A stretch of 64,000 nucleotides of DNA from Escherichia coli (lineage in GTDB: Bacteria; Pseudomonadota; Gammaproteobacteria; Enterobacterales; Enterobacteriaceae). This document shows, one piece after another, positions 28,001-31,000 of the stretch. The DNA lies in the NCBI RefSeq assembly GCF_003334255.1, contig NZ_QOWU01000008.1. One strand, given 5' to 3'. The position numbers are program-made. Numbering within the stretch: the first letter of the stretch is position 1; every line of letters begins with the position of its first letter.

Positions 28001-31000
28001 CCCCGCCGGGTTGTTAAACGAAAACAGTCGCGGCTCCAGTTCACGCATACTGTAGCCGCAAATTGGGCAGGCGAAGTTGGCGGAGAACAGCAGCTCTTCC
28101 GCTTTCGGGTCGTCCATATCCGCCACTACCGCGGTACCACCGGAAAGCTCCAGCGCGGTTTCAAATGACTCGGCAAGACGTTGGGTAAGATCGTCACGCA
28201 CCTTGAAGCGATCAACCACCACTTCAATGGTATGTTTCTTTTGCAGTTCCAGTTTTGGCGGATCGGAAAGATCGCAGACTTCGCCATCAATACGAGCACG
28301 GATGTAGCCCTGGCTTGCCAGGTTCTCCAGCGTTTTGGTGTGTTCGCCTTTGCGCTCTTTAATGATTGGCGCGAGTAGCATCAGACGCTTGCCTTCCGGC
28401 TGCGACAGCACGTTATCCACCATCTGGCTGACGGTTTGCGCCGCCAGCGGGACGTCGTGGTCCGGACAGCGCGGCTCGCCAACGCGGGCGAATAACAAAC
28501 GCAAATAGTCGTGGATTTCGGTGATTGTCCCCACCGTAGAACGCGGGTTATGAGACGTCGATTTCTGCTCAATTGAGATGGCAGGAGAAAGCCCCTCAAT
28601 ATGATCGACGTCCGGCTTTTCCATCAGTGACAGAAACTGCCGCGCGTAGGCGGAAAGGGATTCAACGTAACGGCGCTGCCCTTCGGCATATAAGGTGTCG
28701 AAAGCGAGCGAGGATTTGCCAGAACCCGAAAGCCCGGTCACGACAATGAGCTTGTCGCGGGGGATAACGAGGTTGATGTTTTTGAGATTATGGGTGCGGG
28801 CGCCCCGAACTTCGATCTTATCCATTCACCTTTCCCGGATTAAACGCTTTTTTGCCCGGTGGCATGGTGCTACCGGCGATCACAAACGGTTAATTATGAC
28901 ACAAATTGACCTGAATGAATATACAGTATTGGAATGCATTACCCGGAGTGTTGTGTAACAATGTCTGGCCAGGTTTGTTTCCCGGAACCGAGGTCACAAC
29001 ATAGTAAAAGCGCTATTGGTAATGGTACAATCGCGCGTTTACACTTATTCAGAACGATTTTTTTCAGGAGACACGAACATGGCCAGCAGAGGCGTAAACA
29101 AGGTTATTCTCGTTGGTAATCTGGGTCAGGACCCGGAAGTACGCTACATGCCAAATGGTGGCGCAGTTGCCAACATTACGCTGGCTACTTCCGAATCCTG
29201 GCGTGATAAAGCGACCGGCGAGATGAAAGAACAGACTGAATGGCACCGCGTTGTGCTGTTCGGCAAACTGGCAGAAGTGGCGAGCGAATATCTGCGTAAA
29301 GGTTCTCAGGTTTATATCGAAGGTCAGCTGCGTACCCGTAAATGGACCGATCAATCCGGTCAGGATCGCTACACCACAGAAGTCGTGGTGAACGTTGGCG
29401 GCACCATGCAGATGCTGGGTGGTCGTCAGGGTGGTGGCGCTCCGGCAGGTGGCAATATCGGTGGTGGTCAGCCGCAGGGCGGTTGGGGTCAGCCTCAGCA
29501 GCCGCAGGGTGGCAATCAGTTCAGCGGCGGCGCGCAGTCTCGCCCGCAGCAGTCCGCTCCGGCAGCGCCGTCTAACGAGCCGCCGATGGACTTTGATGAT
29601 GACATTCCGTTCTGATTTGTCATTAAAACAATAGGTTATATTGTTTTAAGGTGGATGATTAAAGCATCTGCCAGCCATAAAAAAGAAGCCTCCGTTATGG
29701 AGGCTTCTACGTATCAGGTCAAAATCATTGGCCATTGTGGCGGTGTCTGATTCATCTCTTCTATCATCACCGACTCGATGTTGTGCCAGATAGCGGTGAT
29801 GTCCGCCATTGTGATGCCAAGCAACCCCATTGCGAACCAACAGGCGGAAACAACGCCCAGACCGCTGCTGATCACCGCAAGCCCGACATAATCAGACCGA
29901 CGAAAACGGATGTTGAGTGTGCTGGCCAGAAACATCATTACGGCACTAAGAAGTTGCCAGCGAAGAAGAACCACGCCAGTGGTGAGGGTAGCCATCAAAC
30001 AATTCCTCTGAAAAGAGCCGATGCCCTGGACAGCGCGGCGTTGTTCACGGGAGGCGTGGTACACTCTGGCTATCGCGGGGCTTGCAGAACACAAAAATGA
30101 AACACTCTGTTTGTTTCATTAATTTTGTGAACTATATCACAATTGATTGTTTGTTAGCCATATTAGGCCGTGACTTTTATTGCTGTACAGATTATGTGGT
30201 TTTTCAGTGGCATTAAGGGCATATCTTCCCGCCGCCTCTGCATTCCTGTAGGAAATTAATTTTGAATATCAATGAATTATTTTCATCCAGGTGACGATTA
30301 GAAAGGTATCAATTTCAAATCAGGCAAAAGTGCTATTTATACCGTAAGATTTATCTAAAGACGTCGGTACCCAGGGTTTTCACCTTGCAATGGCCGGGTA
30401 TAAACAGGCAGGAAATTGATAGCAATGAGTCATCGTGCACGACACCAATTACTGGCGTTGCCGGGCATTATCTTTTTAGTTCTCTTTCCCATCATTCTTT
30501 CGCTATGGATTGCCTTCCTTTGGGCAAAATCAGAAGTGAATAATCAGCTCCGAACCTTTGCTCAACTGGCACTGGATAAATCCGAGCTGGTCATTCGCCA
30601 GGCAGATTTAGTGAGCGATGCAGCTGAACGCTATCAGGGGCAAGTTTGCACTCCAGCCCATCAAAAGCGAATGTTGAATATTATTCGTGGCTATCTTTAT
30701 ATTAATGAATTGATCTATGCCCGTGATAACCATTTTTTATGCTCATCGCTGATAGCGCCTGTAAACGGCTATACGATTGCACCGGCCGATTATAAGCGTG
30801 AACCTAACGTTTCTATCTATTATTACCGCGATACGCCTTTTTTCTCTGGCTATAAAATGACCTATATGCAGCGGGGAAATTATGTGGCGGTTATCAACCC
30901 TCTCTTCTGGAGTGAAGTGATGTCTGATGACCCGACATTGCAATGGGGTGTGTATGATACGGTGACGAAAACCTTTTTCTCGTTAAGCAAAGAGGCCTCG

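Follow-up and report, generated by a model that had tools for sequence, protein, structure and literature searches.

A single LexA operator in the divergent uvrA-ssb spacer of Escherichia coli, re-derived by matrix scanning and species comparison

Inspection of a 64,000-nt stretch of Escherichia coli DNA (contig NZ_QOWU01000008.1 of RefSeq assembly GCF_003334255.1; referred to here, at its full length, as the window) revealed a LexA operator, or SOS box, in the spacer between the divergently transcribed genes uvrA and ssb. The operator, located at 28909..28928, very probably represses both the uvrA promoter and the most distal ssb promoter, with the downstream ssb promoters escaping its control. 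Through one repressor site, the SOS response is linked both to nucleotide excision repair (by UvrA) and to the protection of single-stranded DNA (by SSB), and the site is a classic case of an operator common to divergent genes. The box is already known: it is the uvrA/ssb element itself, not a relative, described by Brandsma et al. (1983, Nature 305:243; 1985, NAR 13:5095) as cited in PMC9505508, and the position of -170 nt given in that source corresponds to the 170 nt from the far edge of the 20-mer to the ssb ATG here. The window matches strain MG1655 without a difference across the 10,001 bases compared (NC_000913.3 coordinate = window coordinate + 4,245,046), and the region is carried by 5,426 of 5,426 complete E. 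coli genomes. What is added here is a clean re-derivation together with a comparative footprint, and nothing newer; the residual question, namely the weight of the box for ssb and the distal promoter that is used, is already recognised in the literature.

Sequence and statistical strength of the operator

On the uvrA strand, the 20-mer ACCTGAATGAATATACAGTA reads as its reverse complement TACTGTATATTCATTCAGGT, which we take to be the published uvrA operator sequence. Its CTG-N10-CAG core, a 16-mer at 28911..28926 (ctgaatgaatatacag / CTGAATGAATATACAG), has a single occurrence and carries A or T at 8 of its 10 central positions, giving the palindrome with an A/T-rich centre, close to TACTG(TA)5CAGTA, that is looked for in a SOS box. 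Comparison of the full 20-mer with the consensus TACTGTATATATATACAGTA revealed agreement at 15 of 20 positions, with all five mismatches located in the degenerate uvrA-proximal half, while the ssb-proximal half (TACTGTATAT on the uvrA strand) matches the consensus half-site perfectly. Because of these five mismatches, the site was not picked up by a search with the 20-nt consensus allowing up to three mismatches, and a matrix was needed. The bare CTG-N10-CAG pattern is common, with 21 matches in the window versus 11.7 expected, and thus proves nothing by itself, which was a further reason to build the matrix.

The LexA matrix was symmetric, comprised 20 columns and was derived from 18 other E. 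coli operators, with every site in the window excluded. Scanning of the roughly 64,000 positions of the window placed the uvrA/ssb site at the top with 19.23 bits, followed by the two held-out operators of lexA (19.13 and 18.27 bits) and, in fourth place, by a match of only 12.16 bits. The recovery of both lexA operators, neither of which had ever been part of the matrix, validated the approach. None of 200 random 64-kb sequences generated with a Markov-1 model reached 19.23 bits (best 18.99, mean maximum 11.8). The score is well above the genomic background and falls within the range of the training operators (13.4-28.6 bits), albeit in its lower-middle part, which fits the published picture of a fairly heterologous box with a heterology index (HI) of 6.98 (PMC9505508) or 6.2 (PMC11228462). 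As the second-best LexA score inside the spacer amounted to only 4.3 bits, the description of the site as single is correct. The initial annotation, made from the sequence alone, had described a single LexA box as a known arrangement in a divergent intergenic region of about 250 bp at 28826-29078 and had proposed a position weight matrix scan as a check: the region coincides exactly with the 253-bp spacer from one start codon to the other (the uvrA ATG, on the minus strand, ends at 28825 and the ssb ATG lies at 29079), the scan ranks the box first in 64 kb, and the agreement with the published uvrA/ssb box and with MG1655 over 10 kb bears out the rest. The host also encodes the cognate repressor, with lexA located in the same window.

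Conservation of the box and promoter geometry

To follow the box across species, one genome per species was searched with the first 250 residues of UvrA, yielding 80 uvrA loci from Enterobacterales, Pasteurellales, Vibrionales, Alteromonadales and relatives. In 51 of these loci (Enterobacterales, Pasteurellales, Tolumonas and Photobacterium), ssb lies divergently and directly upstream of uvrA, separated by spacers of 143-533 bp, and every one of the 51 spacers contains one LexA-like site, 50 of them scoring at least 13 bits and the exception 10.6 bits. Alignment of 41 Enterobacterales spacers revealed the box, at its orthologous position, as the most conserved 20-nt window, with a mean identity to K-12 of 0.90 versus 0.52 elsewhere. 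Conservation peaks at the CTG and CAG arms, and variants remain LexA-like (e.g. CTGT/CTGG and ACAG/CCAG). The second most conserved block, 28884..28905, reads TGTGTCATAAT on the uvrA strand and contains an extended -10 element. Within the species, a comparison of K-12 with E. coli strain L002 (28899..29075) revealed that the 78 bases adjoining uvrA and the box are unchanged; substitutions and a net length change of 3 bp are confined to the ssb side or to a short stretch immediately left of the box, so that polymorphism in the spacer is very uneven.

Beyond the ssb-adjacent loci, uvrA of Vibrio, Aliivibrio and Salinivibrio, which does not have ssb as its neighbour, keeps a strong box (16-25 bits) upstream. 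No LexA-like site of at least 12 bits was found upstream of uvrA in loci L045, L053, L058, L060, L061, L066 and L078-L081, which belong to Pseudoalteromonas, Alteromonas, Shewanella, Glaciecola and relatives and in which the upstream neighbour is mostly a divergent open reading frame (ORF) of about 430-470 amino acids (aa; shorter in L045, L053 and L078) and not ssb. In loci of the Pseudoalteromonas/Alteromonas/Shewanella type, uvrA may have left the LexA regulon, or the motif may be a different one.

The position of the box relative to the uvrA promoter was assessed by anchoring the spacers on the box and measuring the gap to the best -10 element on the uvrA strand in 50 ssb-adjacent loci. 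The extended -10 lies exactly 10 nt from the box at 34 of the 50 loci and 10-14 nt from it at 42, and the TG extension is present in 45. From the 10-nt gap to this conserved element it follows that the box spans approximately -42..-23 of the putative uvrA promoter, within its core, with a predicted start near 28886 and a leader of about 61 nt. This placement agrees with PMC9505508, which describes the LexA box as overlapping the uvrA -35 region. Hexamers for uvrA and ssb (Table 1) were assigned by a lenient weighted scan combined with conservation, which replaced a strict sigma-70 consensus scan.

As for ssb, the box would lie inside both candidates for the distal promoter, covering -33..-14 of candidate A and -23..-4 of candidate B. 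It lies 41-143 nt upstream of all other candidates, at -60..-41 of the middle one, whose TGyAAnAAT-like motif recurs among Enterobacteriaceae spacers, and more than 110 nt upstream of both proximal ones, which have the best promoter scores of the spacer and fall in a conserved block. A box inside the distal and upstream of the remaining candidates agrees with the published description of three ssb promoters, of which LexA is able to repress only the most distal (Brandsma et al. 1985, as recounted in PMC9505508); PMC4199511, on ssb duplication, makes no statement on ssb promoters. Both hexamers of candidate A are altered in strain L002 (ATGACC and TGGAAC), and candidate B is made of bases that are invariant between K-12 and L002. 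Overall, the placement of the distal ssb promoter is weak, being drawn from the sequence and a secondary citation. The initial annotation had positioned the box to regulate the uvrA promoter and one of the ssb promoters, and would have been contradicted by a site outside both promoter footprints; the putative uvrA promoter and both distal ssb candidates enclose the box, with the ssb scores at background level, and this positioning is upheld most clearly for uvrA.

Table 1. Coordinates of the operators, genes and putative promoter elements in the window.
Feature	Position	Strand	Basis and remarks
LexA operator (SOS box), 20-mer ACCTGAATGAATATACAGTA	28909..28928	.	best matrix match in 64 kb and conservation
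Divergent uvrA-ssb intergenic spacer, 253 bp, start codon to start codon	28826..29078	.	
uvrA coding sequence, 940 aa, excinuclease ABC subunit A	26003..28825	-	RefSeq MG1655 annotation and NCBIfam
ssb coding sequence, 178 aa, single-stranded DNA-binding protein	29079..29615	+	RefSeq MG1655 annotation and NCBIfam
ssb Shine-Dalgarno AGGAG	29066..29070	+	
Putative uvrA extended -10 TGTCATAAT (hexamer CATAAT, 28898..28893)	28893..28901	-	conservation; promoter score 7.8
Putative uvrA -35 TATTCA, 17-nt spacer, wholly within the LexA box	28916..28921	-	lenient promoter scan
Region holding both distal, putatively LexA-controlled ssb promoter candidates	28896..28935	+	lenient scan
Distal ssb candidate A, TTGACC, 18-nt spacer, TGGAAT, start ~28942	28906..28911, 28930..28935	+	score 7.2
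Distal ssb candidate B, ATGACA, 18-nt spacer, TATACA, start ~28932	28896..28901, 28920..28925	+	score 6.3
Middle ssb candidate, extended -10 TGTAACAAT, start ~28969	28954..28962	+	score 7.3, putative
Proximal ssb candidate, extended -10 TGGTACAAT, start ~29038	29023..29031	+	score 10.3, putative
Proximal ssb candidate TACACT, start ~29052	29040..29045	+	score 9.0, putative
lexA tandem operators TGCTGTATATACTCACAGCA, AACTGTATATACACCCAGGG	12022..12041, 12043..12062		19.13 and 18.27 bits
lexA, gene of the repressor of the box	12069..12677	+	NCBIfam TIGR00498 LexA equivalog, 289.5 bits vs 110.95 cut-off

Blocking of RNA polymerase by a promoter-bound LexA dimer is the standard mechanism of LexA repression. 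Applied to this spacer, a dimer of LexA, the product of a gene 17 kb away in the window, would bind 28909..28928 in undamaged cells and would cover the -35/spacer part of the uvrA promoter, excluding RNA polymerase by an occlusion that we infer from the promoter geometry and thereby keeping basal uvrA expression moderate. This dimer would also cover the core of the most distal, oppositely directed ssb promoter, with the downstream ssb promoters out of its reach and presumably supplying most SSB constitutively. Upon DNA damage, RecA-stimulated self-cleavage of LexA would vacate the site, whereupon uvrA would climb a few-fold and ssb would gain transcription from its distal promoter. With one half-site degenerate, the operator is expected to be of middling affinity, which fits a relatively high basal expression and a modest induction. 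LexA repression of uvrA in vitro was reportedly described by Sancar et al. in 1982, and LexA occupancy by chromatin immunoprecipitation on microarrays (ChIP-chip) is said to have been reported by Wade et al. in 2005.

For a distal ssb start, the putative long leader (28932..29090, plus strand) shows a predicted folding energy of -43.8 kcal/mol, which is only marginally better than that of shuffled sequences (z = -2.1; 3 of 200 fold equally well). The predicted long-range helix takes in the Shine-Dalgarno region and the start codon.

Published expression data and alternative explanations

Published work consistently reports a LexA-dependent induction of uvrA. After treatment with azidothymidine (AZT), uvrA was induced 3.9-fold with a lexA dependence of 4.4-fold (PMC11228462), and its induction was likewise found to be SOS-dependent in PMC9505508. 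For ssb, reverse transcription quantitative PCR (RT-qPCR) revealed a 17-18-fold increase after ultraviolet (UV) irradiation that was abolished in a lexA3 strain, very high expression in a lexA(Def) strain and an induction by gamma irradiation that was also lexA3-sensitive (PMC9505508). In Salmonella treated with nalidixic acid, uvrA rose 11.2-fold and ssb 9.6-fold, and the study names ssb/uvrA as divergent genes with a common SOS box (one shared box, HI 6.99; PMC8072944); without induction, ssb expression in Salmonella was LexA-independent (PMC8072944). In Table 1 of that study, the shared box of Salmonella ATCC 14028 is listed at distances of 80 bp to the uvrA ATG and 24 bp to the ssb ATG, as compared with about 150 bp to the ssb ATG in E. 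coli and the enterobacterial loci examined here; the 24-bp figure may have been counted from another annotated ssb start or from a small ORF that was annotated within the spacer.

Several observations weigh against the proposed dual repression as a whole or in part. RNA-seq after AZT treatment gave a 1.5-fold induction of ssb with a lexA dependence of 1.0-fold (PMC11228462), droplet digital PCR (ddPCR) found the ssb transcript at equal levels in normally growing wild-type and lexA3 cells (PMC9505508), and three microarray studies, as recounted in PMC9505508, were without ssb induction. Conservation of the ssb-side elements beside the box is poor, even between E. coli strains. When 28700..29200 was scanned with the strict sigma-70 consensus, neither a promoter nor a terminator was returned, and the lenient scores, 7.8 for uvrA and 7.2 and 6.3 for the distal ssb candidates, all fall within the background of random 301-nt genomic windows (6.9 ± 2.1), for which reason the uvrA placement rests on conservation. 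A literature search for the spacer yielded no mapped transcription start and no LexA footprint, and one directed at ChIP-seq work gave no LexA dataset for E. coli. The size of the ssb response is thus disputed in the literature, and it varies with assay and conditions because the constitutive downstream promoters dominate.

The fixed spacing to the uvrA -10, the identity of the uvrA side between K-12 and L002 and the retention of the box where ssb is not adjacent point to uvrA as the main client of the operator, in agreement with the published expression data. Taken further, the box could in practice be an operator of uvrA only, with ssb driven almost wholly by LexA-independent proximal promoters, so that the term shared would overstate its role at ssb. 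The difference between uvrA and ssb after AZT treatment, the LexA-independent expression of ssb in uninduced Salmonella, a spacing fixed to the uvrA -10 and to no conserved ssb element, the persistence of the box with uvrA where ssb is not adjacent and the altered hexamers of candidate A in another E. coli strain all speak for it. We nevertheless regard it as unlikely, since it has to contend with the lexA3-sensitive induction of ssb by UV and gamma irradiation and its overexpression in lexA(Def) seen by RT-qPCR, with the increase of ssb in Salmonella RNA-seq, with the published three-promoter map that assigns the distal ssb promoter to LexA, and with the invariant bases of candidate B. An evolutionary variant, which we put forward tentatively and consider rather doubtful, is that the operator was selected for uvrA alone and that the distal ssb promoter arose as a side effect of the overlap between divergent promoter cores and is unstable in evolution. 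The fixed uvrA -10 spacing, the box kept where ssb has moved and the location of all changes between K-12 and the second strain on the ssb side, including those in the candidate A hexamers, provide hints in this direction. If true, the damage response of ssb would vary by strain and species with the presence of usable -35/-10 hexamers flanking an invariant box, and such an unstable distal promoter could account for decades of conflicting results on ssb induction.

Two further explanations dispense with a LexA operator altogether. That the conserved block serves chiefly another regulator, or is mere promoter sequence resembling a LexA box, is highly improbable: the block does overlap the putative -35 and spacer elements of two promoters, and the legend of Figure 1 in PMC9505508 mentions an ArcA site in the same spacer, yet the figure draws that site as an element of its own, the CTG/CAG arms are the best-conserved positions and variation stays within the LexA motif, -35 hexamers are not normally kept as a 16-nt palindrome, and expression depends on lexA. 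A chance CTG-N10-CAG match devoid of any regulatory role, as might be suspected from the excess of bare-pattern matches in the window and from the five consensus mismatches that hid the site from the search at up to three mismatches, has a probability that we consider negligible. The top matrix score in 64 kb, equalled by none of the 200 random sequences, the presence of the site in all 51 spacers, which represent four orders, its position as the most conserved block of the spacer and the LexA dependence of uvrA expression are all opposed to it, and the chance palindrome was rejected on the grounds of matrix score, 51/51 presence and spacer conservation. In position, the operator is shared by uvrA and ssb.

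Related operators and further features

The two lexA operators of the window belong to the same motif class as the uvrA/ssb site, with near-equal matrix scores and, like it, 5-6 mismatches to the consensus. Their arrangement, the known autoregulatory one of lexA, differs, as two tandem operators lie just upstream of the start codon of one gene, whereas the single uvrA/ssb operator serves two divergent genes at distances of about 93 nt (uvrA) and about 160 nt (ssb). Together, the three sites are useful as positive controls for motif calling. A third CTG-N10-CAG match near lexA, at 11983..11998, reached only 6.6 bits. The best matrix match that is not an operator, TACTGTCGTGAAAAACAATA (42654..42673, 12.2 bits), lies between a 652-aa ORF ending at 42324 (minus strand) and a 489-aa ORF starting at 42684 (plus strand); it has one good half-site with the CAG arm missing and is probably due to chance.

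Closer in layout is the nlhH / higB-2 pair of Salmonella (PMC8072944), where one LexA box in a divergent spacer likewise accompanies damage induction of both neighbours; the genes are other ones, and no constitutive extra promoters buffering one partner, as for ssb, are described there. In the Vibrionaceae, uvrA is likewise preceded by a strong LexA palindrome (16-25 bits) about 75-155 nt upstream of the gene, with ssb usually not adjacent. There, however, the box lies 26-29 nt from the best extended -10 (TGnAATAMT; loci L046, L056, L057, L059, L062, L067, L069, L070, L072 and L075-L077), compared with 10 nt in Enterobacterales, and this wider gap suggests either that a different promoter is used or that LexA acts from upstream of the -35.

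Among the uvrA loci, L034 is a 2.9-kb contig (JAATFR010000166.1) of a metagenome-assembled genome labelled Hyphomicrobiales, although the encoded UvrA N-terminus is 94% identical to that of E. coli. Its LexA box, TACTGGATATTCGTTCAGCT, is the same as that of Acerihabitans arboris (L031), and the contig is most likely a mis-binned enterobacterial one.

The identities of the two flanking genes were confirmed by NCBIfam models, with UvrA scoring 1628 bits against an equivalog cut-off of 1147 and SSB 360 bits against a subfamily cut-off of 260. The G+C content of the spacer is 44%, compared with 51% for the whole window. Scanning of 28000..30500 against Rfam gave no RNA family within the spacer. 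Outside it, Phe_leader yielded a sub-threshold match at 29679..29768 (minus strand; 27.7 bits with E = 0.074, the gathering score being 55). This match, probably due to chance, extends over the yjcB 3' end and the convergent gap between ssb and yjcB.

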